IMG/VR virus record: IMGVR_UViG_3300029913_000003
Location: 128,001-192,000 of that record
From: a virus
DNA: 64,000 bases
Reading direction: 5' to 3' (one strand)
The stretch's first letter is position 1. The number at the start of each line of letters is the position of its first letter. A program made the translations under genes and the position numbers. A model generated the notes under the pieces. The model was not told the origin of the DNA. It was given only the letters and a program-made list of their open reading frames with translations, and made no database searches. Below are positions 7,750 through 29,197 of this stretch, one piece after another.

Positions 7750-7849
7750 GTTTAAATGTTTTTATTAATATTTTTATATGCAAAGATATAAAAAAACATT
7801 TAATTGGACAAATAAAAAATAGATTTTTTTGGTTAATTGTAGTTAATAA

Positions 7850-8101: not shown

Positions 8102-8103
8102 AA

Positions 8104-8559: not shown

Positions 8560-8660
8560 ATCTAAAATTTATTTATTCATATATATTAATATTTTACTTG
8601 ATTAAAATATTAATTATATATTTAAAGTACAAAGGTACTATAAATTATTTAATTACGCAA

Positions 8661-8687
8661 AAAAAGAAGATATAATCTTCTTTTTTT
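8661..8687. terminator. hairpin terminator candidate downstream of the helicase/cas3 transcription unit
   Basis: aaagaagat-ata-atcttcttt followed by a T-run. Confidence 0.45.
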
Positions 8688-8695
8688 ATAATTTA

Positions 8696-10648
8696 TTAAA
8701 ATTCAAATTCTAATAAATCAATAAATTTTTTACCATTTTTAGTTTTAATATCATTTATTGTTATTTTTGATGATATAAGTTGACAGTAATATGTTAATGC
8801 ATTTTTTACATCAATTAAATTTGCACAAGGAGTTTTAATATCAGAAATAACAACATAATCTTCAATATATGATGCAAGAAAATTTGTTTCTACTTTTGAT
8901 TTTTTAGATAATACTAAATTTTTATCTTTATCTAAATATATTGTTATGATATTATTATTTAATTCTATATAACCTTCATTCGGTGTATTATGTACAATTT
9001 TTAATGAAAAATCATTTGTATGTGATGAATCATTTTGATCACTATATGATGAAGCTTGTTCTTTTATACCATTTTTAAAATTAAATTTATTTTTCTTAAT
9101 TACATGTTTACATGGAGGAACATTATATTTATTTTTTAAATATGAAAGATGAAGTTTGATGTGTTTTATTTCTGTATAAATTATAAAATTATAATTATGA
9201 TATCCACATGATCTACCTGCAAAACTTTGAACAATAAAACTTGTTCTATATGTAGAATCATTAACTGTAGTTCTATCAAATAACATTACAATATTTTCTT
9301 TCTCTAATTGATATGATTGCTTCATTTTCTCCTTAATAAATATTATGGTAGGAGCATCTGGTGCATTTTTTAATACATCATTAATAACTTCTTTATCTTT
9401 CTCATAATATGTCAAAGTTTTAAATCCATCAGGTATTAGATTATTTGTATTTGTATTTTTATTTATTCTAACAATATAATATCCTATTTTATTATTAAAG
9501 CTTTCTGCTTCATTTATAAAATGTTTTTCACCTTCTGTTGTTGATAAATCAAATGATTCTCTTAAAAAATTATTTTTTAAAAAATATTCTAAGCCTTTGT
9601 AATTAGGTCCGTGAGATAATTCAATAGTGTTCTTTCTTTTATATAAAATATTACCAACATGTTCTTCATACGGAGTTGCTGATATAGAAAATAAGAAAAT
9701 ATTTTTTTTTGATAAATCAGTTGAACCATTTAAATTTATACCATTTTTTTGAAGATAACTATTCATAGCACTATCAACATTTGATGCTAAATGAGCTTCA
9801 TCAATAAATATAATACAATTATTTAAATCACCTACTTTATTTTTTCTTGACCAACGAATTAAATCTGGATTATGCATAATACCATTCCTCTTTAATATTT
9901 TTTGATCATCTTGCCGACACTCTCCATGAGATATGTCAGTTTTTAATTGTTCTTTATTTGAATTATCACACATTGGAGTTATTAATACACTACTTCTAAA
10001 TTTCAAATTTAGATATTCTCTTAATTCTTGATAAGTTTCTAATAAATATATTATATTACGTACAACACCAGTTTTACCTGCTTGAGTTTCTGCAGTTAAC
10101 ATATTATACCTACTATGTTTTGAATTAAGTTTTGATGATAACATATTATATATGCAACTTAATGATGCAAAAATCTGATCATCAAATACGTGTGATTTAT
10201 CATTAATATTATCAGTTCTATTTAATTTTTCTAATTTGATGCCAGTTAGACGATATATTTCAGAAATCAATTTATTAATACGAAATTTTATACTATGAGC
10301 TAAATTAGTATTTGCTGGAATAGTTGTGGTGGTGGTAGTTGTTTTACTATTACTATTAGCAGATTTTATTAATTGGTGTTTTTTATTATATACAATATCT
10401 TTTAGATTTTCAATATCATATTTAGTACATTTATCATTTTTAATTCTAATATCTATTAATTTATTAATTGCAATAAGTGCTTTTTTTCGATTAGTATTCC
10501 ATTTCTTACTATATAAAGCATCAACTAATTGATCATTGCTATAACGACTAAAATCAAATTTTCTTACGTATGGTTTATTATTTTTAGTAAGTTGACCATT
10601 AATTAAATTTCTTTTAGCTTTAACACTAATAATGTTATTATTTACCAT
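8696..10648 (-). CDS. SF2 DEAH-box helicase downstream of cas3, possibly a CRISPR accessory
   Basis: Motif I TAETQAGKTGVV, motif II IIFIDEAH, motif III FSISAT, and a motif VI-like QSFAGRSCG. There is also a poly-Thr linker. Confidence 0.55.
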   Translation of the reverse strand: MVNNNIISVKAKRNLINGQLTKNNKPYVRKFDFSRYSNDQLVDALYSKKWNTNRKKALIAINKLIDIRIKNDKCTKYDIENLKDIVYNKKHQLIKSANSNSKTTTTTTTIPANTNLAHSIKFRINKLISEIYRLTGIKLEKLNRTDNINDKSHVFDDQIFASLSCIYNMLSSKLNSKHSRYNMLTAETQAGKTGVVRNIIYLLETYQELREYLNLKFRSSVLITPMCDNSNKEQLKTDISHGECRQDDQKILKRNGIMHNPDLIRWSRKNKVGDLNNCIIFIDEAHLASNVDSAMNSYLQKNGINLNGSTDLSKKNIFLFSISATPYEEHVGNILYKRKNTIELSHGPNYKGLEYFLKNNFLRESFDLSTTEGEKHFINEAESFNNKIGYYIVRINKNTNTNNLIPDGFKTLTYYEKDKEVINDVLKNAPDAPTIIFIKEKMKQSYQLEKENIVMLFDRTTVNDSTYRTSFIVQSFAGRSCGYHNYNFIIYTEIKHIKLHLSYLKNKYNVPPCKHVIKKNKFNFKNGIKEQASSYSDQNDSSHTNDFSLKIVHNTPNEGYIELNNNIITIYLDKDKNLVLSKKSKVETNFLASYIEDYVVISDIKTPCANLIDVKNALTYYCQLISSKITINDIKTKNGKKFIDLLEFEF

Positions 10649-10740
10649 GGTTATATATTTTAATTACAGACAAATATAAGGATAATATTTGAAACAAACA
10701 AAAAAAGAAAGTATTTTTAACCTTCTTTTTTAAAATTTAA

Positions 10741-13038
10741 TTATATTAAATTATCGTAAATATCATTTTTTACTAATCCTAATTTTTCACAATAAACTTT
10801 ATCAAATGCAATATATGGGGTTTCTTTTTTCCTGGCATAATCTTTAAGTATAGGTAAAGTATATTGATTATTTTTAAATAACGAATATTTATTATAAAAA
10901 AATCTATCATCCTTAATTTTTATAATATTCTTTATTATTCTCTTAATTTTACTATCTAAACCTGTTATTGGTTCAGATTTTTTAATATCTCGATTAAAAT
11001 CTACACTAAATGAGTCCGTCATTTGTCTTTTTTTTGCATATTTATATATACAATATATATCTCCTCCACTTCTTAATTTAGTATTATTATTTTTAATTGT
11101 ATTGTTTTTAGATTTCTCCATCATCTTATACGGTTCAATTTTACATAAATTTAATAAACTTGTTTTTAGTTTAGATGTGATAAACTTTTTTAAATTTTCA
11201 TTATTTTCATTATTAAACATATTATAATATTCATATAATTCATTTATTGAATATAAATTTCCGTTAATAATATGTTTTTTAATAAATGAAATCCATAATT
11301 TATTTAATTCTAAATCATATTGATTTGATATACTAGTGTTTTCTGAGTTTCTAAATTCACTTTTATTTTCATTAAAAAATAAATTTATTTTTGGAGTTTT
11401 ATTTTTTTTATAATAAAAATGTCCCCACCTATCACATCGACCTATTCTTTGTAAAGTAGTTTCTGGAGACATCACACTATCTGTTAAATTTAAAAATGAT
11501 ATATCCATAGATGCTTGTAAAATAGGTGCTGATATAATACTATCTTTATTCAAAATATTTTTATTTTCTTTGCCATATAAATGAATAATTTTATTCATTA
11601 TTTTTTCTTTATCAGAATCTATATATCTACTATGTATTAAAATATCGCCTTTTTTATAACAATATAATCTTTGAGAATTTGAAATAGAATTCATAATAAC
11701 AACTGAATCTTTTTCATTAGTTATTGTATCAATATCATCAATATAATTAATCAAATATTTACCATTATGTGCAGATGTATAATGAGAATTTTTATTTGGT
11801 AAAATTTTAGTTTTTTTATCTATATTTGTTCCATCCCATAAATATTCCATTATAGTTTGTGTAGCACTTAATAATAATGTGTGACTATTTGTTAACATAT
11901 GTCTAGATTTCATGATATTAATAAAACATGCAAATAGTGCATCATCTTTAATTAATTCATGATATTCATCAAAAATCACATCACAATAATTAATAACAAA
12001 TAATCTATTTCTAATAGAATTATTCACATTAGGAGATAAATAATTATCTATATTAGTTATTATAATATCAGATGTAAATTCTTTAGTGTTTTCATTATTT
12101 GTTTTCTGTCTATTACCTGTTAAATATAACTCAACTGATAATTCAACTGATATATTTTTTAATTCTTGTAAAACAGAATTATATACATTTTCAGCAATAA
12201 TATTTCTAGGGCATACCCATATTAATTTTTTATTAGATTTTAATGACCATAATAACCCCAATAATGTTTTACCAAAACCGGCTGGGGCTTTCATTATTGT
12301 AGTTCGATTATTTAATGATTGATTTGCGTAATCAACTTGAGAATCAAAACGAATAGAATCATAATTAATAGGTTTGCTATATACTTTAGTATCTTTATAT
12401 GATAAATTGTTTATTAATTCTTCACAATAATCATCATCATACAATATTTTTTCTTGATCTGATGCTGATACAAGTCTATCAGCAGTTATAACACAAGATC
12501 TTACTAATGAATTTTTAGAATTTGTTAAACTATTTGGTTCATTTAAATAATATAATGGAGTATTGATAGATTTTTCAAAATTTATATCTTCAAATAATAT
12601 ATTTTCATTCATTAAAAAATTATACATTGATAAAATATTTTTTTTATCATCATCACACATATCACTTAAAATTAATGATATATTATCATTACTTATATAA
12701 TTTATTTTTGGTTTAGAATGATGCCAATATATTGAATCTAAAGAATATCTATATTCATCATTATTTAAAATACATGACACAAATGCCCAACTTATTTCAT
12801 GATGAAATATTGGAGAATTAATAAAAGAAATTGTTTTACTTTTTGATTTTATATAATTTTGAAAATCTAAATTACATTTACCTAAATCATGCAATAAACA
12901 AGCTATTGAAATTTGTTTTTCAAGGTCTTCATTTAATGATAACTTTTTTGATAACATCATTCCTATTTTTTTAACTGCTTTTGAATGAGTTATTAATGAT
13001 ATTCCACTACTATTTGATACAATTTCTTCTAATTTCAT
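10741..13038 (-). CDS. cas3: Cas3 with an HD nuclease fused to an SF2 helicase
   Basis: HD motif LLHDLGK near the N-terminus, with further His-containing segments (FHHEISW, WHHSKP) and ITADRLVSASD. Walker A APAGFGKT, DExH VIFDEYHE, SAT LLSAT, and motif VI QRIGRCDR. It sits beside the CRISPR array. Confidence 0.8.
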   Translation of the reverse strand: MKLEEIVSNSSGISLITHSKAVKKIGMMLSKKLSLNEDLEKQISIACLLHDLGKCNLDFQNYIKSKSKTISFINSPIFHHEISWAFVSCILNNDEYRYSLDSIYWHHSKPKINYISNDNISLILSDMCDDDKKNILSMYNFLMNENILFEDINFEKSINTPLYYLNEPNSLTNSKNSLVRSCVITADRLVSASDQEKILYDDDYCEELINNLSYKDTKVYSKPINYDSIRFDSQVDYANQSLNNRTTIMKAPAGFGKTLLGLLWSLKSNKKLIWVCPRNIIAENVYNSVLQELKNISVELSVELYLTGNRQKTNNENTKEFTSDIIITNIDNYLSPNVNNSIRNRLFVINYCDVIFDEYHELIKDDALFACFINIMKSRHMLTNSHTLLLSATQTIMEYLWDGTNIDKKTKILPNKNSHYTSAHNGKYLINYIDDIDTITNEKDSVVIMNSISNSQRLYCYKKGDILIHSRYIDSDKEKIMNKIIHLYGKENKNILNKDSIISAPILQASMDISFLNLTDSVMSPETTLQRIGRCDRWGHFYYKKNKTPKINLFFNENKSEFRNSENTSISNQYDLELNKLWISFIKKHIINGNLYSINELYEYYNMFNNENNENLKKFITSKLKTSLLNLCKIEPYKMMEKSKNNTIKNNNTKLRSGGDIYCIYKYAKKRQMTDSFSVDFNRDIKKSEPITGLDSKIKRIIKNIIKIKDDRFFYNKYSLFKNNQYTLPILKDYARKKETPYIAFDKVYCEKLGLVKNDIYDNLI

Positions 13039-13157
13039 ATTTTTTATTTTAATTGTGAATAAAAATAATTTTTTAATTATTTATAATATAAATCATAAAT
13101 TTAATTACTGATTTATATAAATATAATAAACACATATTTAAATAGTGTCACTATTTT

Positions 13158-15565
13158 GTTGAGATTCCCTTACGGATTTATATAAATAATATCGAATTCG
13201 ACTTCTGTGCGACCTTGTTCGTCGTTGAGACTCCCTTACGGATTTATATAAATAATATCTTCACTTAATGTAATAAATTCTAAATCATGTTGAGACTCCC
13301 TTACGGATTTATATAAATAATATCTTATCATTTTTTTCAAAAATAGAAAGAGAAGTTGAGATTCCCTTACGGATTTATATAAATAATATCTTATCATTCA
13401 GAATTATTTTTTCTTCTTTAGTTGAGACTCCCTTACGGATTTATATAAATAATATCAACTATAGAAACAATAGAAAGAGATTTATTGTTGAGACTCCCTT
13501 ACAGATTTATATAAATAATATCAATATTTGTCATTTGTTTTTCTTCTATATATGTTGAGACTCCATTACGGATTTATATAAATAATATCTAAACTGTCAT
13601 CTAAATGATCATTTGATTTGTTGAGACTCCCTTACGGATTTATATAAATAATATCATTATCTGAATATGCTGCAAATCATAAACTGTTAAGACTCCTTTA
13701 CGGATTTATATAAATAATATCTGCATACAGAATTCACCGTTGTAATTCATTGTTGAGACTCCATTACGGATTTATATAAATAATATCTTTAACAAGTGTC
13801 TTCCCTCCTTTTCTATAGTTGAGATTCCCTTACGGATTTATATAAATAATATCTAAATACTCTGAATATTCAACTGGTAAGAAGTTGAGATTCCCTTACG
13901 GATTTATATAAATAATATCAAAATCATCTGTGAAAATTGGAGTTACACCGTTGAGACTCCCTTACGGATTTATATAAATAATATCAAATTATTTTATAAC
14001 TGAATATCAATCAATGTTGAGACTCCCTTACGGATTTATATAAATAATATCTGTTGTACCTAAAACTAAAACTGTTTCTCTGTTGAGACTCCCTTACGGA
14101 TTTATATAAATAATATCTAATTCTAATTCTAAATCTGTATAATCACCGTTGAGACTCCCTTACGGATTTATATAAATAATATCTTATTTGAAAATCTTTA
14201 CAAGAAAATCAGGGTTGAGACTCCCTTACGGATTTATATAAATAATATCTTACCAATTAAGAAAAAGAATTGATACCTTGTTAAGACTCCCTTACGGATT
14301 TATATAAATAATATCTTATTAATAGATGTGCTGGCACCACCTTCGTTGAGACTCCCTTACGGATTTATATAAATAATATCTTTTGTATTTGAAATAATAT
14401 CACTTCCTTTGTTGAGACTCCCTTACGGATTTATATAAATAATATCTTATATTACTATATTTATTAAATATGATAAGTTGAGACTCCCTTACGGATTTAT
14501 ATAAATAATATCTGAATCACTTTTTGTTTTACGTAGTAATTCGTTGAGACTCCCTTACGGATTTATATAAATAATATCATCAAGAACTTCGGTTGCCTTT
14601 AATTCATTGTTGAGACTCCCTTACGGATTTATATAAATAATATCCTATAACCTCCCTATTTTTTTCATCAACTGTTGAGACTCCCTTACGGATTTATATA
14701 AATAATATCATATAATCACTTCTTTTCCTGCTCTGCTTTGTTGAGACTCCCTTACGGATTTATATAAATAATATCATTGCACTAAAAATGTCATTAATAG
14801 GGTTCGTTGAGACTCCCTTACGGATTTATATAAATAATATCGCACTTTTCCCATTTTTTCTGGCTACACTTGTTGAGACTCCCTTACGGATTTATATAAA
14901 TAATATCATTTCTTCTTTGAATGATTTGTAGAAATATGTTGAGACTCCCTTACGGATTTATATAAATAATATCTAGCGTATTTGATTCTAATAAGCAATA
15001 TGTGTTGAGACTCCCTTACGGATTTATATAAATAATATCACCGATTAACTCTTTTCTTAATTGACTATAGTTGAGACTCCCTTACGGATTTATATAAATA
15101 ATATCTAGCGTATTTAATGTAAATAAGCAATATGTGTTGAGACTCCCTTACGGATTTATATAAATAATATCAAAAGCGAATTCAACATTGACTGACGCTC
15201 GTTGAGACTCCCTTACGGATTTATATAAATAATATCGACAAATTAAATACATATATATAACATATGTTGAGACTCCCTTACGGATTTATATAAATAATAT
15301 CTGATATAATTGAAAGTCAATCATTTTATTTGTTGAGACTCCCTTACGGATTTATATAAATAATATCCTGTTATGTTAGAATAAGTAATTGCACTATGTT
15401 GAGACTCCCTTACGGATTTATATAAATAATATCAAATCTATTTAAAGAGATTGAACAGCTAGAGTTGAGACTCCCTTACGGATTTATATAAATAATATCT
15501 AGCAGAACAGGATAGACATCAATTCATTGGTTGAGACTCCCTTACGGATTTATATAAATAATATC
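13158..15565 (-). CRISPR. CRISPR array with 37 copies of a 36-bp repeat and 36 spacers of 29-31 bp
   Basis: Repeat GTTGAGACTCCCTTACGGATTTATATAAATAATATC with a 66-bp period. A few variants occur, such as GATTCCC, CCATTACGG and GTTAAGACTCCTTTACGG. The strand is inferred from the flanking cas genes and from the variant terminal repeat lying at the 13158 end. Confidence 0.97.
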
Positions 15566-15666
15566 AGGATATTTATAATTAATTGATATTGAGTTATTTA
15601 TAGTATATATTAATAAATAAAAATGAGTTATTAATATACGTATATCATTATATTTATTCATTTTTA
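15566..15666 (-). promoter_or_regulatory. putative CRISPR leader
   Basis: AT-rich 101-bp gap between the cas6 stop and the consensus terminal repeat at 15530. The first repeat at 13158 is a variant, so the leader is placed at this end. Confidence 0.4.
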
Positions 15667-16371
15667 TCATACTAATTTATATTTATCTTTATTTTCTGTT
15701 TTATAAATTGTACCAAATCCAGAACCAGTTGATTGTCCTATACCTAAATTATAAATTTTTTCTGCCACATCAGATGAACAAAATATACTAATGTGACATT
15801 GATTAGCTTCATTTTTGACATTTTTAACCATTATTTTCTTTACTTTATGTGAAGGATGATTTATTATTTTAACATCAAAATCTTTTAAATTAATACCGTT
15901 ATAAATTTTACTCAATTTTTTTATAATATGGTTTTTTACAATATATACGAAATCAGAATCATTTAAAGTTGAATAAGTATATTTCTTTTTATTAATATGC
16001 TTTCTAATAATAAATGGAGATAATGTTGCGAAATGATTCCATCCATTTATAAATTTTTCAAAGATAAAATTAATTTTATTAAATTTCATTCCCCAATTTA
16101 AATCTTGATTAGACATCACTCCACTTATTAAATCATTCAAAAATTCTTCATTTTTTGAAGTTACTACAATAATTCCTCCATTCTTAAATGATAAATGTAA
16201 CTTATCTTCAGTTAGGTTTCCACCATATAAAGATGATATAGAGTAATCATTTTTAGAATCATGATATTTATTATTAACTCCAAGACATTTGTGTATATAA
16301 TAATTAATATATGATTGATTCTTAATCGGTACCAATGTTTTATTTTCTGTAAATTCAATTTTTATTCTCAT
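15667..16371 (-). CDS. cas6: Cas6 crRNA endoribonuclease
   Basis: N-terminus MRIKIEF and the C-terminal glycine-rich loop LGIGQSTGSGFGTIY typical of Cas6. It is immediately adjacent to the array. Confidence 0.65.
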   Translation of the reverse strand: MRIKIEFTENKTLVPIKNQSYINYYIHKCLGVNNKYHDSKNDYSISSLYGGNLTEDKLHLSFKNGGIIVVTSKNEEFLNDLISGVMSNQDLNWGMKFNKINFIFEKFINGWNHFATLSPFIIRKHINKKKYTYSTLNDSDFVYIVKNHIIKKLSKIYNGINLKDFDVKIINHPSHKVKKIMVKNVKNEANQCHISIFCSSDVAEKIYNLGIGQSTGSGFGTIYKTENKDKYKLV

Positions 16372-17254
16372 ATTCTTCTAATTTATTAATATTAATATAA
16401 CTATCTAAATCATTTTCAATCATTTCATCTTCATTTATCAAATCTTCTATCCAAACAAATCCTCCATCTAATAACGTTGCACAACCTTTTGAATTTTTAA
16501 TTTTGTCAACATATTCTGATGTTAAAGGAATTATTATAGAACCACTAATTTTTGTAATATTATCAATTCCTCTAATATTTGTTAATGTAGTTTTTGGATT
16601 TTGACCAATTGTTATTGCTGATTGATTTACAATACCAATAAGAAGATTTGCAATTGGAGTTTTATTATTTTTAACTAATTTTTTACAAAAAATTGTAAAA
16701 TCAGAATTATCATTATATTGTTTAATGAAATTTGCAAATTTTATTTTGCTATTATTTTTTATTTCATTATTAATATCTATAACTAATTTAGAACTACTAT
16801 AATATGTAATAATCTCTTTTATTATATACATTGCAGGTTTTGATTTAACATCATAACCTAATATATTATTAAATAAATTAATCATTTCTATAAATAGATC
16901 AGTAGTTAAATAACATTCTAGATTTTCCCAATAAATAAAACTTCTTTTTTTATCTCTATAGCTATCATAAGCAAATTTATTTGTTTGTATAAACTCATTC
17001 ATATAACACATTTTACCACTAGATTTATTTAAAAATCTTGTTGTATCTATTTTTATATAAGCTAAATTAGCTATATTAAATATATCTGATATAGGTTTAA
17101 TTAATGTATCTCTATATGTTGGACTTGGACGTTCACCCATTAAAACATGCAGCATGTTACTTATTTGATGAACACTTATACTAGGTTTTTGATTATTAGT
17201 TGCTTTTTCAAAAAATCCAGCATCTTTAAATGACAATTTTAAAAAATATTCCAT
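16355..17254 (-). CDS. putative Cascade subunit, Cas5- or Cas8-like; no family motif seen
   Basis: Sits between the Cas7-like and cas6 genes and overlaps cas6 by 17 nt. The call rests on position and size only. Confidence 0.3.
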   Translation of the reverse strand: MEYFLKLSFKDAGFFEKATNNQKPSISVHQISNMLHVLMGERPSPTYRDTLIKPISDIFNIANLAYIKIDTTRFLNKSSGKMCYMNEFIQTNKFAYDSYRDKKRSFIYWENLECYLTTDLFIEMINLFNNILGYDVKSKPAMYIIKEIITYYSSSKLVIDINNEIKNNSKIKFANFIKQYNDNSDFTIFCKKLVKNNKTPIANLLIGIVNQSAITIGQNPKTTLTNIRGIDNITKISGSIIIPLTSEYVDKIKNSKGCATLLDGGFVWIEDLINEDEMIENDLDSYININKLEEYENKN

Positions 17255-17264
17255 ATTATTAGAA

Positions 17265-18338
17265 TTATTTAGCTTCTTTTTGAGATTTTAATTTAGCTTC
17301 TTTTTTTTCTTTTTTATCATCTTTAGCTTTCAATTTAGCATCTATTCTTTTTTTAATTATAATAGATCTCTTATCTGACAATTCTATATCTAAAGTTTTT
17401 GCATTTTCAAAATCATATTCAGTATAAAAATTTTCATTTTCAAAATTTAAATTATCTATAACATCTTTTGTTAATTCAATCCATCCATCAGAATTATTTT
17501 TTTTATCATTAAATACGTCATATACTAATTTAATTTTAAGTTTAGACGTAACAACACTAGATCCAGATTTATAAATATTCATTTTTAGCATTTTATATAA
17601 TAGATTTTTTGTTAGTTCAACAACATCTGTATTGGATAATAAAAAACCATATTCTGGTAATTCAACAACACTATTTGTAATCCTATAATATTTTAATTCC
17701 GAATTAAATGATGGTAATCTTTTTTTCAATAATTCTGAATATAAAGGAAATAAATCTGGATTGAATGCTAATCGATCTAAATTTTTAGAACAACTAATAA
17801 ATTGCATTTGCATTAAATCAATATTACCATCAGTCTCATATGTTATATCTCCTACAGTTTCTTTGTTAAATAATGAAGTATCACTTATTTTTTCACCACT
17901 AACTGTCATAAGTTCTATTTTTGATTTACAATTATTTGTTTGTTCAGCGTCAATTATACATAAAACACTTTTTCTTCTAATTGTTTTATCAATCTCATCT
18001 TCATTCAATGCAAATAAATGACCTCTATTTATAATTGCAGGAGAAGCCAACATTGACACAAGTAAATAATTATTATGCAATATATTTGGAGATTGAAATG
18101 GAATATCATCAATAAAAATATTATGTCTTAAACAATTACTAGAAATTTTTATTTTATAATCATATTCACCATTACTTTTCTGATATATATTTTTTTTTGC
18201 AAATATTAAATTATTATCAGTTTCATACTTTCCACCACTAATTTCATTCCATATCCATTTTTGTCCATTACTATCACAGTTAACAACACCATTACCTTCT
18301 AATTCCATTTTAAATAAAATGTTCTTTACTTTTTTCAT
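17265..18338 (-). CDS. putative Cas7-like backbone subunit with a Lys-rich C-terminal tail
   Basis: N-terminus FKMELEGNGVVNCDSNG loosely resembles the N-terminal Asn/Gly-rich segment seen in Cas7-family proteins. Position in the operon fits. The tail KAKDDKKEKKEAKLKSQKEAK is atypical. Confidence 0.35.
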   Translation of the reverse strand: MKKVKNILFKMELEGNGVVNCDSNGQKWIWNEISGGKYETDNNLIFAKKNIYQKSNGEYDYKIKISSNCLRHNIFIDDIPFQSPNILHNNYLLVSMLASPAIINRGHLFALNEDEIDKTIRRKSVLCIIDAEQTNNCKSKIELMTVSGEKISDTSLFNKETVGDITYETDGNIDLMQMQFISCSKNLDRLAFNPDLFPLYSELLKKRLPSFNSELKYYRITNSVVELPEYGFLLSNTDVVELTKNLLYKMLKMNIYKSGSSVVTSKLKIKLVYDVFNDKKNNSDGWIELTKDVIDNLNFENENFYTEYDFENAKTLDIELSDKRSIIIKKRIDAKLKAKDDKKEKKEAKLKSQKEAK

Positions 18339-18403
18339 ATTAAATAATTTTAAATTGTTTTTATAAAGTACAAAAGTAAAGTAAATATTTGGTATAACCT
18401 AAT

Positions 18404-18667
18404 TTAATTAAAAATATTATTCAATTTTTTCAATTTAATTTTTCTAATCTCATTTTTTCTATAAAAATAAGTATATAAATATTCTTCATCACGTTTAAAA
18501 GATGAATAAGCATTTTTATCATCAGATATCAAATACTGATAATCATCATCATAATTAATAATAAAATGAACAATATAATATCTATCTTTATGATATATTG
18601 AATATGATGTTGTTAAATCTTTTTTACATAATAACTTATCTCCTACATTAAGATTCTGATTCTTCAT
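18404..18667 (-). CDS. GDKLLCKK/RKIKLEKL family member 1, the one proximal to the cas genes
   Basis: MKNQNLNVGDKLLCKK...YFYRKNEIRKIKLKKL. Confidence 0.55.
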   Translation of the reverse strand: MKNQNLNVGDKLLCKKDLTTSYSIYHKDRYYIVHFIINYDDDYQYLISDDKNAYSSFKRDEEYLYTYFYRKNEIRKIKLKKLNNIFN

Positions 18668-18914
18668 AAATTTTTTCTAATTTAATTTTTCTTTCTTCTT
18701 GTTTAGTATAAAAATGTTCAGACATCTCTTTTATGCTAAATGAAAATGGTAATATTCTATCATTTTCATCATTAAAATAATAACAATATTCATAAGGACC
18801 GTATACTACCATAACAATATAATAATTATCAACATATAAATATTTATTTGCTCCAACTAGAAGATTTTTTTTACATAATAATTTATCTTCATCATTAATA
18901 TCCTGTTTCTTCAT
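18648..18914 (-). CDS. GDKLLCKK/RKIKLEKL family member 2
   Basis: MKKQDINDEDKLLCKK...FYTKQEERKIKLEKIYEESES. Confidence 0.55.
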   Translation of the reverse strand: MKKQDINDEDKLLCKKNLLVGANKYLYVDNYYIVMVVYGPYEYCYYFNDENDRILPFSFSIKEMSEHFYTKQEERKIKLEKIYEESES

Positions 18915-19167
18915 AAAGTTTTTCTAATTTTATTTTTCTCTCCTCTTGTTTAGTATAAAAATGTTCATAAAAAAATCTAACGCTATATCTAAAAGAATAA
19001 TATTTTTTTTTATCAAATTCTATATAATAACAATAATCAGTATTATTGTCAAATAATTTAATATCATAAACAATATAATATTTATTTTTATTAAAACTTG
19101 CATATAATTCATTTAAATTTTTTTTACACAATAACTTATCACCTACATTAAGATTCTGATTCTTCAT
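18895..19167 (-). CDS. GDKLLCKK/RKIKLEKL family member 3
   Basis: Conserved termini with a variable core. Confidence 0.55.
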   Translation of the reverse strand: MKNQNLNVGDKLLCKKNLNELYASFNKNKYYIVYDIKLFDNNTDYCYYIEFDKKKYYSFRYSVRFFYEHFYTKQEERKIKLEKLYEETGY

Positions 19168-19414
19168 AAAGTTTTTCTAATTTAATTTTTCTCTCTTCTT
19201 GTTTAGTATAAAAATGATTTAGTAATTCATTTTTATTTAAAAAATATGGATATATTCCATTAGATTCATTAAATATACAGCAGGCAAAACCTTTAAATGA
19301 ATCATTCAGAATTTTATGATAAATATAATATTTACATTCTATAAAATGTGTACTATAATTAGCTATTAAATCTTTTTTACATAATATTTTATCACCTTCA
19401 TTAAAATTATTCAT
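19148..19414 (-). CDS. GDKLLCKK/RKIKLEKL family member 4
   Basis: MNNFNEGDKILCKK...FYTKQEERKIKLEKLYEESES. Confidence 0.55.
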   Translation of the reverse strand: MNNFNEGDKILCKKDLIANYSTHFIECKYYIYHKILNDSFKGFACCIFNESNGIYPYFLNKNELLNHFYTKQEERKIKLEKLYEESES

Positions 19415-19658
19415 AAAGTTTTTCTAATTTGATTTTTCTTTCTTCTTGTTTAGTATAAAAATACTGATGTAAATATGATTCACTAAAAAATGGTAATATT
19501 GTATTGAATTCTGATCTTAAATCATAAAAATATTCACTATAATCAGTTGAAAAATTTTTAATATCATCTACATAATAATATTTATCTTTAATAAATATTT
19601 TATCAATCTCCTCTTTACATAATAATCTATCTCCTACATTAATATTCTGTTTCTTCAT
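19407..19658 (-). CDS. GDKLLCKK/RKIKLEKL family member 5
   Basis: Conserved termini. Confidence 0.55.
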   Translation of the reverse strand: MKKQNINVGDRLLCKEEIDKIFIKDKYYYVDDIKNFSTDYSEYFYDLRSEFNTILPFFSESYLHQYFYTKQEERKIKLEKLYE

Positions 19659-19905
19659 AAAGTTTTTCTAATTTTAATTTTCTAATCTCATTTTTCATAA
19701 AAAAATGACCAACTAAATCATGTTCAGTTAAATAATATGAAAATATATTATTAGATTCACTTATATAACAGCAGTAAAAATCATTAAAAATACCACTAAA
19801 CATATTATCATGAAAAATATAATAATCACCTTCTATAATATGGTTACCATAATAAGTTAAATCCTTTTTACATAATATTTTATCACCATCATTAAAATTA
19901 TTCAT
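19639..19905 (-). CDS. GDKLLCKK/RKIKLEKL family member 6
   Basis: Conserved termini, with the variant FFMKNEIRKLKLEKLYEETEY. Confidence 0.55.
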   Translation of the reverse strand: MNNFNDGDKILCKKDLTYYGNHIIEGDYYIFHDNMFSGIFNDFYCCYISESNNIFSYYLTEHDLVGHFFMKNEIRKLKLEKLYEETEY

Positions 19906-20173
19906 AATTTTCTATTTTATCTAATTTTCTTTTTCTTTCTTCTTGTTTAGTATAAAAATATTCATATAAATCTTCTTCACCACAAAATAATATTAAATTA
20001 TCATCATCATCAAATAAATAATAATAATAAAAATCCACACCGCTTATAGTATTAGAAATAATATAAATTGATATCATAGCATAATATTTGTCTATTTTGA
20101 AATTTTTATTTATATTAATTATATTATATTTACATAATAAATTATCTCCTACTTTAAGATTTTGATTCTTCAT
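19898..20173 (-). CDS. GDKLLCKK/RKIKLEKL family member 7
   Basis: MKNQNLKVGDNLLCK...FYTKQEERKRKLDKIENYE. Confidence 0.55.
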   Translation of the reverse strand: MKNQNLKVGDNLLCKYNIININKNFKIDKYYAMISIYIISNTISGVDFYYYYLFDDDDNLILFCGEEDLYEYFYTKQEERKRKLDKIENYE

Positions 20174-20429
20174 AAAGTTTTTCTAATTTGATTTTTCTTT
20201 CTTCTTGTTTAGTATAAAAATATTCACAAAATTCTCCGTAATATCTAAAATTAACAGGTTGATATTGTTCACATATAAGCATATAAATATAATCAGTATA
20301 ATTATTATTAGTTGGAGTAATTTCACAAACATAATAATATTCAAATTCAATAAGATATGTACTTTCTGAATTAAAAAGATTTTTTTTGCATAATAATTTA
20401 TCTCCTACATTAATATTCTGCTTCTTCAT
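20154..20429 (-). CDS. GDKLLCKK/RKIKLEKL family member 8
   Basis: Conserved termini. Confidence 0.55.
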   Translation of the reverse strand: MKKQNINVGDKLLCKKNLFNSESTYLIEFEYYYVCEITPTNNNYTDYIYMLICEQYQPVNFRYYGEFCEYFYTKQEERKIKLEKLYEESKS

Positions 20430-20679
20430 AAAGTTTTTCTAATTTAATTTTTCTTTCTTCTTGTTTAGTATAAAAATATTTACAAAATTCTTTTTCATCA
20501 CAACATACCAATGATTCGAAATCGTCTAAATAATAGAAATAATAATCTTTACGAGCTACATTAATAATATCAATATATTTAATATAATAATATTTACCTT
20601 TTATAATATATGTAGAATTTGATAAAAAACTAATCTTACATAATAACTTATCTCCAATATTAATATTCTGCTTCTTCAT
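20410..20679 (-). CDS. GDKLLCKK/RKIKLEKL family member 9
   Basis: Conserved termini. Confidence 0.55.
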   Translation of the reverse strand: MKKQNINIGDKLLCKISFLSNSTYIIKGKYYYIKYIDIINVARKDYYFYYLDDFESLVCCDEKEFCKYFYTKQEERKIKLEKLYEEAEY

Positions 20680-20944
20680 TTTTTAATTTTTCTAATTTAA
20701 TTTTTCGTACTTCATTTTTAGTATAAAAATAATCATCAAATTCTTCTATATAATAGAAATCTTTATTGGTATCATCTATTATATTATATTTATAATAAAG
20801 TACATCAATGTCAGCACTCAAAAGTACATCAAAGTCAGCACTCAAAATTATATATTCTACACCTTTCGTTAATGTCAGATATGATTTATTAACATCAATT
20901 TTACACAATAATTTATCTCCTATATTAAAATTTTGATTCTTCAT
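20660..20944 (-). CDS. GDKLLCKK/RKIKLEKL family member 10
   Basis: Start moved to the internal MKNQNFNIGDKLLCK at 20944 to match the family and the 20-nt overlap rule. The ORF-track start at 21022 is probably over-extended. The core carries a 24-bp tandem duplication. Confidence 0.5.
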   Translation of the reverse strand: MKNQNFNIGDKLLCKIDVNKSYLTLTKGVEYIILSADFDVLLSADIDVLYYKYNIIDDTNKDFYYIEEFDDYFYTKNEVRKIKLEKLKNEEAEY

Positions 20945-21212
20945 GAAGTTTTTGTAATTTAATTTTTCTAGTTTCGTTTTTTGTGTAAAAATAAGTATAA
21001 ATATCTTCATATGAACAAACAATATTCATTTTTTCATTTCCTATGGTCATATAATAATATGCATTATCAATATTAAAAAATTTATTATCAATATTAAAAA
21101 ATTTAATATCATAAACAGTATAACATGAATTTAGTATATAATATTCAAAATTTGGATGAAATATACGTTTACATATTAATTCATCTCCTATATTAAGATT
21201 CTGTTCCTTCAT
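20925..21212 (-). CDS. GDKLLCKK/RKIKLEKL family member 11
   Basis: MKEQNLNIGDELICKR...FYTKNETRKIKLQKLHEESKF, with an internal 21-bp tandem duplication. Confidence 0.55.
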   Translation of the reverse strand: MKEQNLNIGDELICKRIFHPNFEYYILNSCYTVYDIKFFNIDNKFFNIDNAYYYMTIGNEKMNIVCSYEDIYTYFYTKNETRKIKLQKLHEESKF

Positions 21213-21462
21213 TACCCAACTTTTTTAATTTAATATTCCTAACTTCCTTCTCAGTGTAAAAAAATTCATAAATATCTTTTTCATACTGAACTTCTACCTT
21301 TACATTATTATCATCAATTATATAAATAAAAGTATAATATTCAGTCTCAAATAAACTATCACTTATAATATATTCGTTCCCTTTATGAATAGATATCTTA
21401 TGATGAATATAATCTTTTTTGCATAATAATTTATCTCCTACTTTAAAATTATGATCCTTCAT
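21193..21462 (-). CDS. GDKLLCKK/RKIKLEKL family member 12
   Basis: Conserved termini. Confidence 0.55.
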   Translation of the reverse strand: MKDHNFKVGDKLLCKKDYIHHKISIHKGNEYIISDSLFETEYYTFIYIIDDNNVKVEVQYEKDIYEFFYTEKEVRNIKLKKLGNEGTES

Positions 21463-21742
21463 TTATTTCATTTAATTTCATGCTTCTAATTTCATTTTTA
21501 GTATAAAAATAAGTATATAAATATCTTTCCATCCAAAATGAATATCGTTCATTATTATCATCAATTATATAATAAAAATATTCATTATAATCCACAAAAA
21601 TATCATTAATTAATCTAATTTCATCAACAACATAATATTTACCTTTTTTAAAAAATAATAATGAAGTATTATTAGATACCAATGATTTTAAATCATTTTT
21701 GCATAATAATTTATCTCCAATATTAAGATTCTGTTTATCCAT
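21449..21742 (-). CDS. GDKLLCKK/RKIKLEKL family member 13
   Basis: Conserved termini. Confidence 0.55.
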   Translation of the reverse strand: MDKQNLNIGDKLLCKNDLKSLVSNNTSLLFFKKGKYYVVDEIRLINDIFVDYNEYFYYIIDDNNERYSFWMERYLYTYFYTKNEIRSMKLNEINEGS

Positions 21743-22058
21743 TTATTTTCTGCAATTTCTTATTTCTTAATTCTTTTTTTTCATAAAAATAATCATGAAA
21801 AAAACTTTCAGACCAAAATGAACATGATTTATTCATTTCTCCATTTATATAATAAATATAATCATCTTGTCCAAATATATGATCACATGTATTCTTATAA
21901 GCATATTTATCATCTATTATTTTTATATCAACAATAGAATAATATTTATCTTTTATAAAATGAGAAAATATTATTAATTTATCATCACTAATTAAATTTT
22001 GAAATAAATCTTTTTTACATAATAACTTATCTCCTAAATTAATATTCTTTTTCGTCAT
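21735..22058 (-). CDS. GDKLLCKK/RKIKLEKL family member 14
   Basis: Conserved termini. Confidence 0.55.
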   Translation of the reverse strand: MTKKNINLGDKLLCKKDLFQNLISDDKLIIFSHFIKDKYYSIVDIKIIDDKYAYKNTCDHIFGQDDYIYYINGEMNKSCSFWSESFFHDYFYEKKELRNKKLQKING

Positions 22059-22305
22059 TTTTTAATTTGTTTAATTTTATTTTTCTTTCTTCTTGTTTAG
22101 TATAAAAAACATCATAAAAATCAACTTTACGTAGATATAATAAATTTTTGCTATTTTTTTCTTTTAATGAATAAAAATTACTACTATAAAATATGTTAGT
22201 ATTAACTATTTCATATTCTCTATCTTTATAAAAAACTTCAGTATAATTATAATAACTATTTTTGCATAATAATTTATCTCCAATATTAATATTCTGTTTA
22301 TCCAT
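22039..22305 (-). CDS. GDKLLCKK/RKIKLEKL family member 15, the most distal
   Basis: MDKQNINIGDKLLCKN...FYTKQEERKIKLNKLKNDEKEY. Confidence 0.55.
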   Translation of the reverse strand: MDKQNINIGDKLLCKNSYYNYTEVFYKDREYEIVNTNIFYSSNFYSLKEKNSKNLLYLRKVDFYDVFYTKQEERKIKLNKLKNDEKEY

Positions 22306-22488
22306 AAAGTGGTTCTAATTTTATTTTTCTATCATGAACTGTTGCTAATGTAAAGTAATTCTAAACTAATTTCATTGTTTTTCACCGAAATTAGAAACTC
22401 TGACTCCAACTGTATTCAATTTTCCATTCAATATCAAATATAATCATTTTATTCCGTATTATATGTATTTTTTAAATTTTTCTTTCAT

Positions 22489-22617
22489 CTATTCATATTT
22501 TAATCTGTAACATTTACCACCACTCTTAAATTCTATAACATCAAATCCAATATAAGTCCTTTCATTCACTGGAATAACCTTCTTTTTAGATCTTTTAATA
22601 GTCTTAATATCCTTCAT
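22489..22617 (-). CDS. 42-aa basic mini-ORF coupled to the RHH gene
   Basis: MKDIKTIKRSKKKVIPVNERTYIGFDVIEFKSGGKCYRLKYE. Its ATG overlaps the RHH stop as TAATG. It is below the ORF-track threshold. Confidence 0.25.
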   Translation of the reverse strand: MKDIKTIKRSKKKVIPVNERTYIGFDVIEFKSGGKCYRLKYE

Positions 22618-22775
22618 TAAATTTTTAATTTTTCAATTATTATCTTCTCAATATATCCAGAATAATTCTCAATCTCATTCTGCTCACAATATCTAACAAA
22701 CATATCATAAACCCTTGGATCTATCGAAAATGAAATCTTCTTCCTTTTTTGATCATCAGGTATCTTTTTCCGCAT
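22617..22775 (-). CDS. 52-aa ribbon-helix-helix (CopG/Arc-like) DNA-binding protein
   Basis: Hand translation gives MRKKIPDDQKRKKISFSIDPRVYDMFVRYCEQNEIENYSGYIEKIIIEKLKI, a beta-strand then helix-helix pattern typical of RHH. It is below the ORF-track threshold. Confidence 0.4.
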   Translation of the reverse strand: MRKKIPDDQKRKKISFSIDPRVYDMFVRYCEQNEIENYSGYIEKIIIEKLKI

Positions 22776-22909: not shown

Positions 22910-23092
22910 ATGAAATCACCAAAGAAAAATAGAAAATTGTCGATATCTATATCACTAGACGTTAATATTATTAAACAAATAGATGATAATTTTACAAATA
23001 AATCAAAATTTTTAGAATATAGCATAATAGAAGAACTCTGTAAAGATCTAAAATTTAAAGATGAACTAAAAAATAAACATATTATACTATGA
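22910..23092 (+). CDS. RHH-like small DNA-binding protein divergent from 22617..22775
   Basis: KKNRKLSISISLDVNIIKQIDD...SKFLEYSIIEEL, and a 4-nt ATGA overlap with the downstream GIY-YIG gene. Confidence 0.4.
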   Translation: MKSPKKNRKLSISISLDVNIIKQIDDNFTNKSKFLEYSIIEELCKDLKFKDELKNKHIIL

Positions 23093-25710: not shown

Positions 25711-26034
25711 ATGAAAGAGATAGAAGAATGGTTTTATGATTGTAAATTTATTTATTTTAGTTTCAATTTAGATATTGAGCCTACAAATAAAATAAATGAA
25801 TTTAGAATAATAGCAGAATCTGAAATACCTAAGATACCAAATAAATATATATCTGGATTTTATGGATATGTAGAAAAAGGAATATCATATTGTTGGTTAG
25901 ATTTAATAAATTGTAACATTATCATGACTGATTATGATCATAGTATTATACCATCTGTATTTGAGTTTAATAGAACTGATTGGATTAAGAATAAAAGAAA
26001 GAAAAAATTAGAAAATATAATTAATAATGTATAA
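25711..26034 (+). CDS. hypothetical protein
   Basis: 107-aa ORF. Confidence 0.4.
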   Translation: MKEIEEWFYDCKFIYFSFNLDIEPTNKINEFRIIAESEIPKIPNKYISGFYGYVEKGISYCWLDLINCNIIMTDYDHSIIPSVFEFNRTDWIKNKRKKKLENIINNV

Positions 26035-26923: not shown

Positions 26924-27191
26924 GATTAATGAATTATATTTTTGTAAAAAGACATTAAATACAACTCTTAATAATTTTCCTGAATTAGAAAAAGGAAAAT
27001 ATTATAAATTAACTCATATATATGATAGTGTTATTACAATTATACTTAATGATAAAATTAGTGAAATATCATTTTCATTAGATGATGAATATGATGAATA
27101 TAGTGTTTATTTTTATTTTTATGAATATTTTGGAGATAATCAAGATGCAAGAAAATATAAATTAAATAAGTTATTAAATGATAATGTATAA
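26913..27191 (+). CDS. RKxKLxKL superfamily small protein
   Basis: MHPKINELYFCKK...ARKYKLNKLLNDNV. Confidence 0.5.
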   Translation: MHPKINELYFCKKTLNTTLNNFPELEKGKYYKLTHIYDSVITIILNDKISEISFSLDDEYDEYSVYFYFYEYFGDNQDARKYKLNKLLNDNV

Positions 27192-27717
27192 ATTTTTAGA
27201 TGTTGAATGTAAGATTGATTTTGATTCTTTTTTATCTATAGATTCCGTAACAGGTAGATTATATAAAAAAGATTTTGAGTCATTTTATTCTTTATATGAG
27301 TACATTGAATTCAATTTGAAGGATATTACTCATATATTATTTGATGACTATGAGTACTACTTAAATCATGGTAAACTTCATAATTTGTATGGTCCTGCTA
27401 TGATAAAATATAATGTTACTAGTGAATTTAGTCCAACTCAATTTAATATTAATAAATTTTATATTGATGGTAAATTAGTAGTTGATGATATAATGAGTAC
27501 AAAAGGTTGTCGTAAATTAGAATTCTTTAAGTCAAGAGAAATTTTTTTCTATAAAGAGTTAACAAATAAAAAATCAGGACGAGATGAACTAACTGGAATT
27601 TTTTACAGAAGAAAAGAAGGAATTGATTATGAAAAAACTATCATAAATCTTAATGATAGAATTAGAATTGATCAAAGAAAATTAAAATTAATATCATTAA
27701 AAAATGTCAATATTTAA
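27178..27717 (+). CDS. hypothetical protein
   Basis: 179-aa ORF. Confidence 0.45.
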   Translation: MIMYKFLDVECKIDFDSFLSIDSVTGRLYKKDFESFYSLYEYIEFNLKDITHILFDDYEYYLNHGKLHNLYGPAMIKYNVTSEFSPTQFNINKFYIDGKLVVDDIMSTKGCRKLEFFKSREIFFYKELTNKKSGRDELTGIFYRRKEGIDYEKTIINLNDRIRIDQRKLKLISLKNVNI

Positions 27718-28140: not shown

Positions 28141-28659
28141 TTAGTTATTTTTGATGTTATTAATTTCATTATTTTTTCTTTCTTGTTCGATTAAATCAGT
28201 TTGAACGATATTAGCATAAATCATTTTGAATGAATTTTTAACTTTATTATCAATTTCTTTTTCTTTTTCATTTTCAATTTCTTCTTTTTTAATATCAAAT
28301 ATTTCAAGAAGATATAAATATTTTTTATCTGAAATAATAATTGGTGGATATGCAGTTTCTTTATGGTAAACAAGAACTTGCATATTTCTAATAATAATAT
28401 ATGTTCCAGTTATTTTATTGTCTATAATTCTTTTAAGTGTTTTTGAAGTCATTGATAATACTGAATCATTATCTCTAATAAGTCGTCTACATAGACTTAC
28501 TACTTCATTTTCACTATTATTTACTTTATTAATCTTATTATCACTAATTGTAAAAAACCTAATAAGTTTAATTGCAAATTTTTGTGTGTCACGACGAAAT
28601 TTTTGTTTCTTGACTTTAAAATAAGATTTCTTAATTTCAATTCTTTCTGTTAATTTCAT
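28141..28659 (-). CDS. hypothetical protein
   Basis: 172-aa ORF with a 3-nt gap to the neighbour. Confidence 0.45.
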   Translation of the reverse strand: MKLTERIEIKKSYFKVKKQKFRRDTQKFAIKLIRFFTISDNKINKVNNSENEVVSLCRRLIRDNDSVLSMTSKTLKRIIDNKITGTYIIIRNMQVLVYHKETAYPPIIISDKKYLYLLEIFDIKKEEIENEKEKEIDNKVKNSFKMIYANIVQTDLIEQERKNNEINNIKNN

Positions 28660-28891: not shown

Positions 28892-29197
28892 TTGAATATG
28901 ATTGATTTTAAATATAGAGAATATTATGATGAAAAATGCATAAAATTAATTGAATCTATAGGCTATAAAAATAAAACAAATAATTTCATGCTATTTGAAC
29001 AAGATGGCTATATTAATATAAATTTTTATATAATAAATGATTGGGATAAAATAATTTCATTTAATAGGTACTACCAAATAACAAATGAAATTAAAGTCTA
29101 TACAAAAGAATTTTTTAATTTTGAAGATTTTAAAAAATTTATAATTGAATATCATATAAAAATATTTAGAAAATTAAAATTAAAAAATTTGATATGA
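28892..29197 (+). CDS. hypothetical protein
   Basis: 101-aa ORF. Confidence 0.4.
   Translation: MNMIDFKYREYYDEKCIKLIESIGYKNKTNNFMLFEQDGYININFYIINDWDKIISFNRYYQITNEIKVYTKEFFNFEDFKKFIIEYHIKIFRKLKLKNLI

Follow-up and report, generated by a model that had tools for sequence, protein, structure and literature searches.

A stretch of 64,000 nt (hereafter the window), positions 128,001 to 192,000 of the virus record IMGVR_UViG_3300029913_000003 in IMG/VR, carries on its minus strand fifteen small paralogous genes that overlap end to start and lie directly upstream of a set of cas genes. The array is an old family shaped by birth and death, as seen in its collinear orthologs, copy-number polymorphism, a pseudogene, and internal duplications. 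My reading of the whole is of a tandem family of SH3-like proteins, evolving by birth and death, that would constitute a repertoire of accessory binders sharing one docking helix, and whose cas neighborhood would be a matter of synteny within a clade. I give this reading roughly an even chance of being correct, most of the doubt lying in its functional part.

According to this reading, unequal recombination would add and remove units at the conserved junctions between the end of one gene and the start of the next, loops would grow by small slippage duplications, and the cores would drift under relaxed or episodically positive selection. The overlaps, in which a stop codon follows the next start, point to coupled translation of the copies from a polycistronic message. 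The variable face made up of hairpin and loops may recognize different targets in hosts or competitors, and the constant C-terminal helix may dock the array proteins, together with other proteins bearing the same tail, to one common partner. The role would be an accessory one, in host takeover, anti-defence, or competition. The proximity of array and cas genes would reflect synteny within one clade of huge phages of the Bacteroidota type, in which cas modules were apparently exchanged behind their own promoter.

An overlapping family with a predicted SH3-like fold

The genes, numbered 1 to 15 from 22305 down to 18404 (Table 1), all run from ATG to TAA on the minus strand and encode 83 to 107 amino acids, much as an initial annotation of the window had described them. 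They are a genuine family of protein-coding tandem paralogs. The array stretch is 18% G+C, in a window that is about 21% G+C throughout, and stop triplets occupy 10% of its positions, so that 88 open codons would arise by chance with a probability of about 1e-4. Stop-free runs of 80 codons or more number 15 on the sense strand and 0 on the antisense strand, and shuffles of the array stretch give 0.026. A comparison of substitution rates, proposed at the outset as a way of exposing noncoding frames, shows instead coding constraint in the best pairs of orthologs (pN 0.09 and pS 0.28 for gene 2 and L014.4; L numbers refer here to metagenomic loci).

Overlap is found at every junction: 20 nt at ten, 8 nt at three, and 14 nt at one, the relative frame of the downstream gene being constant throughout. 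At a typical junction the upstream tail reads CTT TAT GAA GAA TCA GAA TCT TAA and the downstream start ATG AAG AAT CAG AAT CTT AAT. The repeats are regularly spaced, at about 250 nt, with conserved blocks of 85–89 nt.

The start motif is MKxQNxNxGDKLLCKK, with two copies having instead MNNFN(D/E)GDKILCKK, and the end motif is YFYTKQEERKIKLEKLYEE. When the 15 copies were aligned, mean pairwise amino acid identity was 0.70 over the first 16 residues, 0.22 in the core, and 0.68 over the last 17 residues; the corresponding nucleotide identities were 0.82, 0.53, and 0.77. The conserved ends of the initial annotation are thus borne out, at about 70% amino acid identity. The cores, which it called essentially unrelated, are indeed divergent, but they retain landmarks in common, namely Y31 and a pattern of strands. 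It also pointed to fresh internal duplications of 21–24 bp, and these are present in genes 5 and 6: a 21-bp unit repeated 2.3 times, encoding FFNIDNKFFNIDN, and a 24-bp unit repeated 2.1 times, encoding SADFDVLLSADIDVL, both 96% matching.

The structures of two highly divergent copies, genes 13 and 2, were predicted by AlphaFold2 using an alignment of 69 sequences, with pLDDT values of 85.5 and 82.2, respectively. In both models the elements follow in one order, beginning with a strand at residues 11–14 and a hairpin and continuing through three more strands and a short helix to a long helix at the C-terminus. The predicted fold is a five-stranded SH3-like beta-barrel with an added C-terminal helix. 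Parts of low entropy on the model are the first strand (GDKLLCKK), Tyr31, an F-Y-T turn, and the last helix; insertions, taken over the whole family, concentrate in the hairpin and loops, ahead of residues 25, 42, and 60. In SH3 domains the counterparts of these variable segments would be the RT and n-Src loops. Given the shared fold and the conserved core positions, the cores are not unrelated; on the evidence of the models they are one fold, with strongly diverged strands and loops of differing length, and they are homologous.

Searches against Pfam, PHROGs, PADLOC models, and PDB sequences brought no copy, and none of the 69 family members, to threshold. The best Pfam match, to DUF7026 (E 0.011, 15.8 bits against a cut-off of 28), covers only the C-terminal helix. 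The array proteins showed no similarity to known Acr families or structures, and the best structural matches listed for the models include no anti-CRISPR chain. Modules of the same kind seem to occur in a different setting in L130 (Ga0268276_1001013), where positions 1–14287 hold long open reading frames (ORFs) in which acidic linkers of the type ESIDFDENDWDYEEE connect numerous small modules, apparently like beads on a string; among these is a family-type barrel that lacks the C-terminal helix.

The tail motif, E-x-R-K-x-K-L-x-x-L/I, is predicted to form an amphipathic helix, whose invariant residues (Arg, Lys-Leu, and Leu/Ile, at i, i+3, i+4, and i+7) lie on one face. The end of each gene also contains the start of the next, and the motif was considered as an RNA-level signal for translational restart. 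As the sole cause of conservation this was rejected. Across genomes the invariant Arg is encoded by AGA, AGG, CGT, CGA, CGG, and CGC and the Leu by TTA, TTG, and CTN, the distance from tail to next ATG varies from 25 to 34 nt, and the last gene of every array keeps the motif, though nothing overlaps that gene. Because of the codon switching and the retention in last genes, conservation of the tail must be placed at the level of the protein and not only of the RNA upstream of the next start. An overlapping start (-30 to +5 nt of the stop) is nonetheless commoner after tagged small genes (74% vs. 43%), and the tail may contribute to translational coupling.

The helix is a portable motif that also ends unrelated small proteins. 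Of the 100 ORFs of the window, 29 have the pattern [RK]-x-x-K-[LIM]-x-x-[LI] within their last 22 residues, 11 of these lying outside the family, and the other 17,021 residues contain only 5 matches. In L020 (1–880), a close relative, the array passes from three SH3-like copies into an unrelated family of about 74 amino acids, in at least three complete copies and a fourth that runs off the end of the contig, with the same tail (...RRRKLEKLYE) and the same junction of start within tail. It may be added that the motif is about 60-fold commoner at C-termini than internally and that the 11 nonfamily carriers often stand in short overlapping runs.

The best structural matches of the models are to the DNA-contacting SH3 domains of RecD2 and Dda, and the proteins might accordingly be small nucleic-acid-binding proteins, an SH3-like barrel with a basic helix, resembling the SH3 domains of SF1B helicases or chromatin-type proteins, that coat or regulate the DNA or RNA of phage or host, the multiple copies serving dosage or sequence preference. 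The invariant Arg and Lys of the helix fit such a role, as does the position of the genes among those for replication and nucleotide metabolism. The match scores, however, are at the level of a generic fold (Z ≤ 6.6), the isoelectric points of the 15 proteins extend from 4.6 to 9.1 with most cores net acidic, and the same helix ends unrelated proteins, all of which makes this role rather improbable. That spread of isoelectric points also led me to reject DNA mimicry, which would call for uniformly acidic proteins.

Birth and death of array genes

Gene conversion, in the form of strong concerted evolution, was rejected as the main cause of the conserved ends. End identity between genomes is close to that within them (0.69 vs. 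0.71 at the N-terminus, 0.64 vs. 0.68 at the C-terminus), and the within-genome excess, though significant, is too small (0.04 at the C-terminus).

The cores tell of age. Pairs of cores with at least 40% identity across four genomes number 31, of which 19 involve window copies, with order roughly kept; within genomes there are 7 such pairs over the four, and the window accounts for 1. In three other phage lineages, collinear orthologs of 40–80% identity are found for most cores (56% for gene 6 and L001.8, for example). Since matches across genomes outnumber those within, most duplications are older than the split of these phages. The flanking helicase is 75–90% identical between the same genomes, the array evolving faster than its surroundings. 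Nei-Gojobori estimates of dN/dS for ortholog cores run from 0.29 to about 1 (pooled, 0.6), and those for two recent paralog pairs from 1.0 to 1.4.

Change of three kinds is directly visible: a two-unit indel, small duplications in loops, and decay of a copy. The indel, of about 500 nt, distinguishes L001 from L002, which are 99.94% identical before it and about 94% after it. To judge from gene order, L001.10 and L001.11 are missing from L002, and the indel is placed between L001.9 and L001.11, whose C-terminal segments are identical. The decayed copy is a sixteenth unit of the window (Table 1), 49% identical over 57 amino acids (E 4e-14) to the intact first array gene of L014.

Another possibility is a mostly neutral or selfish array, in which the conserved junction eases unequal recombination and copies accumulate and drift with little individual function. 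A copy number that differs between near-identical strains and the presence of a pseudogene are what this would predict, and recent paralogs with dN/dS of about 1.0–1.4, as well as the pooled core value of 0.6, point the same way. Yet all 15 frames are intact where stops make up 10% of triplets, orthologs are kept in order across lineages whose helicases are only 75–90% identical, the best ortholog pairs have dN/dS near 0.3, and the ends are strongly conserved as protein. I assign a neutral array a low probability.

The family extends well beyond the window. A word-indexed search found 65 relatives, all metagenomic, some of them identical to window copies and on a contig of 346,561 bp, and an exhaustive profile search of metagenome proteins returned 3,253 clusters (at 50% identity) with E ≤ 1e-3 and 368 with E ≤ 1e-10. 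There was no family match in GenBank phages (50,697 records, DNA and protein searches with two different members) and none in a pattern scan of GTDB species genomes. The family is purely metagenomic, with no cultured representative and no known prophage, and I found no comparable phage arrays in the literature. The metagenome loci were found with degenerate DNA patterns, 98 of 119 loci being chance matches to GDKLLCKK-like words; the true loci, at least 21, are to be taken as examples, not frequencies.

These loci lie in huge and ordinary phages, with from 1 to about 30 copies, mostly without cas genes nearby. The whole of one 14.6-kb contig (L146/L152) is given to 51 co-directional small genes, about 30 of them family members, with a Pfam domain in no called gene. 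L148 has 20 copies in 12.8 kb, the other ORFs there all being of 190 amino acids or less. L049, L082/L115, L100/L140, and L011 have 10–16 copies each, among genes for ankyrin, CYTH, NUDIX, CoaE, PRPP synthetase, and methyltransferase proteins. Single or double copies are found on a 531-kb contig, on several IMG/VR contigs, and beside the terminase of a phage contig of about 30 kb. Within the window, three dispersed loci beginning at 26027, 26669, and 26913 and suspected from the start of belonging to the family are members (E 1e-15 to 1e-16), situated on the plus strand beyond a DinG-like helicase; a fourth, ORF 732, is a marginal match (E 0.018) over the barrel half only.

The window comes from a huge phage, probably with a host among the Bacteroidota, as judged from relatives of a structural protein and from TAnnTTTG boxes. 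The 1061-aa structural protein is 35–40% identical to proteins of uncultured phage records of 630–735 kb (LR756501-4, LR745206), with more distant relatives in Lak, PAU, Tenacibaculum, and Chryseobacterium phages. TAnnTTTG, the -7 promoter element known from Bacteroidota, precedes several window genes.

The neighboring cas locus

The array stops at 18404, 65 nt from the ATG (18338) of a co-oriented Cas7-like gene, exactly as first annotated. That gene begins a locus (Table 1) in which Cas7 and Cas3 score as an I-F variant and Cas6 scores best against Cas6b models. No cas1, cas2, or cas4 is nearby; a 67-aa remnant of cas2 is retained in L014, and L001 has the full adaptation module.

Four clade lineages have contigs that extend past the array: the window and its 99.995% twin L030, L004/L021, L001, and L014/L061. 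A cas operon follows the array in all four, I-Fv-like in two and I-B-like in two. As compared to the window, Cas7fv of L004/L021 is 53% identical and Cas3 44%. The operon of L001 and L014 consists of Cas6, a 551-aa protein, Cas7, Cas5d, and Cas3, with the addition of Cas4, Cas1, and Cas2 in L001, a gene order that looks like that of type I-B. The spacer of 65–75 nt between array and cas is 80% identical in the four lineages, regardless of cas type, and it carries a -7 box of the TAnnTTTG type, TACTTTTG, about 32 nt ahead of the start codon. On the right the cas slot is flanked by a conserved 650-aa protein (window 8696–10648), and a search with it for clade members having an empty or non-cas slot returned only the contigs already known. 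The simplest reading is of a fixed slot, in which whole cas modules would have been exchanged behind a resident promoter, with the array as left flank. A scan for sigma-70 promoters was uninformative in DNA so rich in AT (92 sites found, 86 expected).

The position of the array led initially to the suggestion of a functional link to the CRISPR system. It could be that the array proteins are anti-CRISPRs against the systems of hosts or rivals, regulators, or accessory or specificity subunits co-expressed with cas. In four lineages, which have two cas types between them, array and cas lie side by side in one orientation, no terminator-like site separates them, and the setting (small, diverse proteins on a mobile element, with a small putative DNA-binding gene heading the operon) resembles that of acr-aca loci. 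Adjacency thus holds throughout the immediate clade, and because it is perfect there the link keeps some weight. It does not hold for the family as a whole: co-occurrence is confined to that one clade of four lineages and does not recur across independent ones, and at least eight other phage contigs have arrays of 7–30 copies or single copies without cas. No cas genes are present in the contig sequence of L009, L011, L026-L029, L049, L082/L115, L100/L140, L146/L152, L148, or L153, which include the contigs with about 30 copies in 14.6 kb and 20 in 12.8 kb, and both array and cas are missing from two helicase relatives at greater distance. The link is further weakened by the three window members that stand past the helicase, away from cas, by the separate spacer and -7 box of the cas operon, and by the want of any PADLOC match or listed anti-CRISPR structural match. 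Nor are family genes, or relatives' arrays, targets of the phages' own spacers: of 106 spacers, taken from five of the phages' CRISPR arrays, not one matches a family gene. (Three weak partial matches were dismissed, two with 2–3 mismatches over 23–24 nt and the third, over 25 nt, with one mismatch and one gap.) A direct part for the array in the CRISPR system is unlikely, and the whole group of CRISPR-linked roles seems to me quite improbable.

The spacers offer a separate observation. One in the I-Fv-like array of L004 (13762–13791) and one in the I-B-like array of L014 (18072–18100) match at 29 of 30 nt, and two phages of different CRISPR type seem therefore to hold a spacer against the same target.

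To return to the reading of the array as a library of accessory binding proteins that neighbors cas by synteny, several points weigh against it. A cas operon, of whichever type, lies within 61–405 nt of the array in all four clade lineages that reach past the array, which goes beyond one chance coincidence and would allow for some functional connection. Because a terminator scan found no terminator-like site between array and cas, co-transcription by read-through is possible. The Nei-Gojobori (NG86) dN/dS values are rough in a genome of 19% G+C. No copy has a homolog of known function, the binding of targets by the variable face rests on analogy to SH3 domains, and the C-terminal helix could merely stabilize the fold.

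Wider interpretation, comparisons, and other features of the window

A bolder extension, which I think unlikely but worth stating, would make the helix a portable address tag, carried by dozens of unrelated small modules (SH3-like barrels, the 74-aa family, and others) in overlapping coupled arrays (of up to about 30 genes) and delivering them to a single hub, for example the packaging or ejection route or a host machine. The arrays would be a modular effector library of huge Bacteroidota phages, and the cas slot beside them would add another, interchangeable weapon bay to that accessory island. Should the helix prove to serve for docking or sorting, it would offer a way into how these phages deploy numerous small effectors together and would allow such effectors to be recognized from sequence.

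Constant flanks around variable middles also bring to mind targeted hypermutation or cassette exchange, by a diversity-generating retroelement (DGR) or an integron-like system. In the 64-kb window YxDD occurs in no ORF of at least 200 amino acids except the 1061-aa structural protein and Cas3, leaving no reverse-transcriptase-like ORF, and there is no near-identical pair of template and variable repeats, the junction repeats being only 60–85% identical. No local hypermutation is seen between two 99.66%-identical strains: SNPs number 9 in the 4.0 kb of the array (0.22%) and 21 in 4.9 kb outside it (0.43%). In contrast to the variable proteins of DGRs, the variation is old and not generated in situ, and in contrast to integron cassettes, the units are bounded by 8–20 nt of overlapping coding sequence and not by attC-like sites; no integrase was evident among the window ORF translations read by eye, not every ORF having been scanned against Pfam. 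Such a mechanism is hardly credible. The family is diversifying, as initially annotated, in that its paralogs diverge rapidly between constant ends; the collinear orthologs, low SNP density, and lack within the window of reverse transcriptase or template repeat do not accord with ongoing hypervariation. Finally, the notion that the repeats are a noncoding regulatory or CRISPR-like array with accidental ORFs, suggested by the regular spacing of about 250 nt and the blocks of 85–89 nt, is refuted by 15 open frames where 0.026 are expected, the excess of synonymous over nonsynonymous change between orthologs, the confident and consistent fold predictions, and amino acids conserved despite changes of codon.

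Among known systems, the closest in behavior would seem to be the multigene families of large eukaryotic DNA viruses, and the closest in fold SH3-like barrels. African swine fever virus (MGF360/505) and poxviruses (ankyrin-repeat families) have, like the array, tandem diverged paralogs in accessory regions, with copy number varying by strain. The poxvirus ankyrin proteins are the nearest analogues, each joining a variable recognition part to a short, constant C-terminal PRANC/F-box-like motif that docks to a common machine. The array differs from these families in coming from a bacterial virus, in the far smaller size of its proteins (about 90 amino acids), in its SH3-like fold, and in its overlapping genes, and there is no sequence relationship. 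With SH3-like and Tudor-like barrels (the SH3 domains of RecD2 and Dda, FeoA, and eukaryotic SH3 domains) the likeness lies in variable, insertion-prone segments that match the RT and n-Src loops of the ligand site, but sequence similarity is not detectable, and the array proteins stand alone, with their own GDKLLCKK strand and C-terminal helix. Phage acr loci share with the array small, diverse, unannotated proteins beside a small putative regulator, here with CRISPR-Cas genes as well. The array, however, consists of fifteen to nineteen paralogs of one fold, not a few unrelated genes, matches no known Acr or defence model or structure, and has most of its relatives far from cas.

Expanded paralog families are known in large viruses. 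What is new is the family itself, the scale of the phage arrays (15–30 genes), the overlapping junction as the boundary of a unit, and the portable C-terminal helix. With thousands of clusters and no entry in Pfam or PHROGs, the family is one of the larger blocks among the hundreds of unnamed small genes that huge phages carry, and its architecture (constant frame and tail, variable loops, overlapping junctions acting as recombination points) invites experiments. The neighboring locus has a value of its own, as a fixed site where, behind one conserved promoter, whole cas modules have apparently been swapped for others of a different type.

Table 1. Positions of array genes, dispersed members, the cas locus, and other features (window coordinates unless a locus is named).
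Feature	Position	Strand	Evidence or remark
Whole array, 15 overlapping paralogous genes	18404–22305	-	numbered from 22305 down
Gene 1, 88 aa	22039–22305	-	family HMM, E 5e-23
Gene 2, 107 aa	21735–22058	-	longest loop insertions of all copies; ortholog L014.4, 80% core identity; AlphaFold model
Gene 3, 97 aa	21449–21742	-	ORF and family HMM
Gene 4, 89 aa	21193–21462	-	ORF and family HMM
Gene 5, 95 aa	20925–21212	-	21-bp tandem duplication at 21063–21111
Gene 6, 94 aa	20660–20944	-	counted from ATG at 20944; 24-bp tandem duplication at 20797–20847
Gene 7, 89 aa	20410–20679	-	ORF and family HMM
Gene 8, 91 aa	20154–20429	-	ORF and family HMM
Gene 9, 91 aa	19898–20173	-	ORF and family HMM
Gene 10, 88 aa	19639–19905	-	MNNFN subtype; ORF and family HMM
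Gene 11, 83 aa	19407–19658	-	ortholog L001.13, 61% core identity
Gene 12, 88 aa	19148–19414	-	MNNFN subtype; ortholog L014.15, 61% core identity
Gene 13, 90 aa	18895–19167	-	first copy modeled: predicted SH3-like barrel and two C-terminal helices
Gene 14, 88 aa	18648–18914	-	ORF and family HMM
Gene 15, 87 aa	18404–18667	-	last copy; C-terminal R-K-I-K-L-K-K-L kept, end overlapped by no gene
Decayed sixteenth copy	~22313–22468	-	three in-frame stops; end overlaps ATG of gene 1
Two small genes heading array, 52 and 42 aa	22489–22775	-	same position conserved in relatives
Dispersed member past helicase, 94 aa	26027–26311	+	family HMM, E 6e-16
Two overlapping dispersed members, 84 and 92 aa	26669–27191	+	family HMM, E 7e-17 and 2e-16
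cas context (not family)	10741–18338	-	Cas7fv-like, Cas5fv-position ORF, Cas6, CRISPR array, Cas3
Intergenic stretch between array and cas	18339–18403	-	TACTTTTG (-7 box) ~32 nt before cas7fv ATG
Conserved pre-cas spacer	18339–18403; L014 10283–10354; L001 11511–11576; L004 10825–10900		
Cas7fv-like	17265–18338	-	PADLOC
ORF in Cas5fv position, 299 aa	16355–17254	-	matched no model; Cas5fv-like by position alone
Cas6	15667–16371	-	Pfam
CRISPR array	~13156–15586		37 repeats of 36 nt
Cas3	10741–13038	-	Pfam; Cas3fv-like by PADLOC
Nonfamily ORFs ending in R-K-x-K-L-x-x-L/I (n = 11)	5609–5863, 25711–26034, 27178–27717, 28898–29197, 32514–32960, 38231–38960, 56151–56713		
ORFs ending in (K/R)FN(L/I)	190–1064, 42259–42654, 45726–47447, 54181–54895, 62748–63400		
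TAnnTTTG boxes	upstream of 33261–33692, 34978–35724, 6991–7749, 28141–28659		~25–35 nt before start codons

The head of the array operon is marked by two divergent ORFs, of 52 amino acids (22617–22775, minus strand) and 60 amino acids (22910–23092, plus strand), with a spacer of 134 nt between them. By eye both products look like ribbon-helix-helix proteins, the shorter one being a putative small DNA-binding protein; neither had a significant family match.

Ten ORFs of the window end in (K/R)FN(L/I), seven of them beginning MKY(I/L)K.FE, and several pairs are joined by overlaps of the ATGA type. This looks like a second, different signature of start and end on otherwise dissimilar small proteins. 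A second recurrent upstream word, TTTTTATATATA, precedes other genes than does TAnnTTTG, e.g., those at 47541, 44688, and 60121, and the two words may represent two classes of promoter.

The remaining observations concern individual genes. An ORF of 548 amino acids (30481–32127, minus strand) has by eye the look of a TnpB/Cas12-type protein, with no match in Pfam or PADLOC. There are two pairs of paralogs: adjacent, very similar genes of 231 and 233 amino acids (40822–42229) and genes of 249 and 252 amino acids with common N-terminal halves (3745–4494 and 6991–7749). A 12-nt tandem repeat, present 7.6 times at 54500–54588, encodes (YENI)n near the start of ORF 54503–54895.

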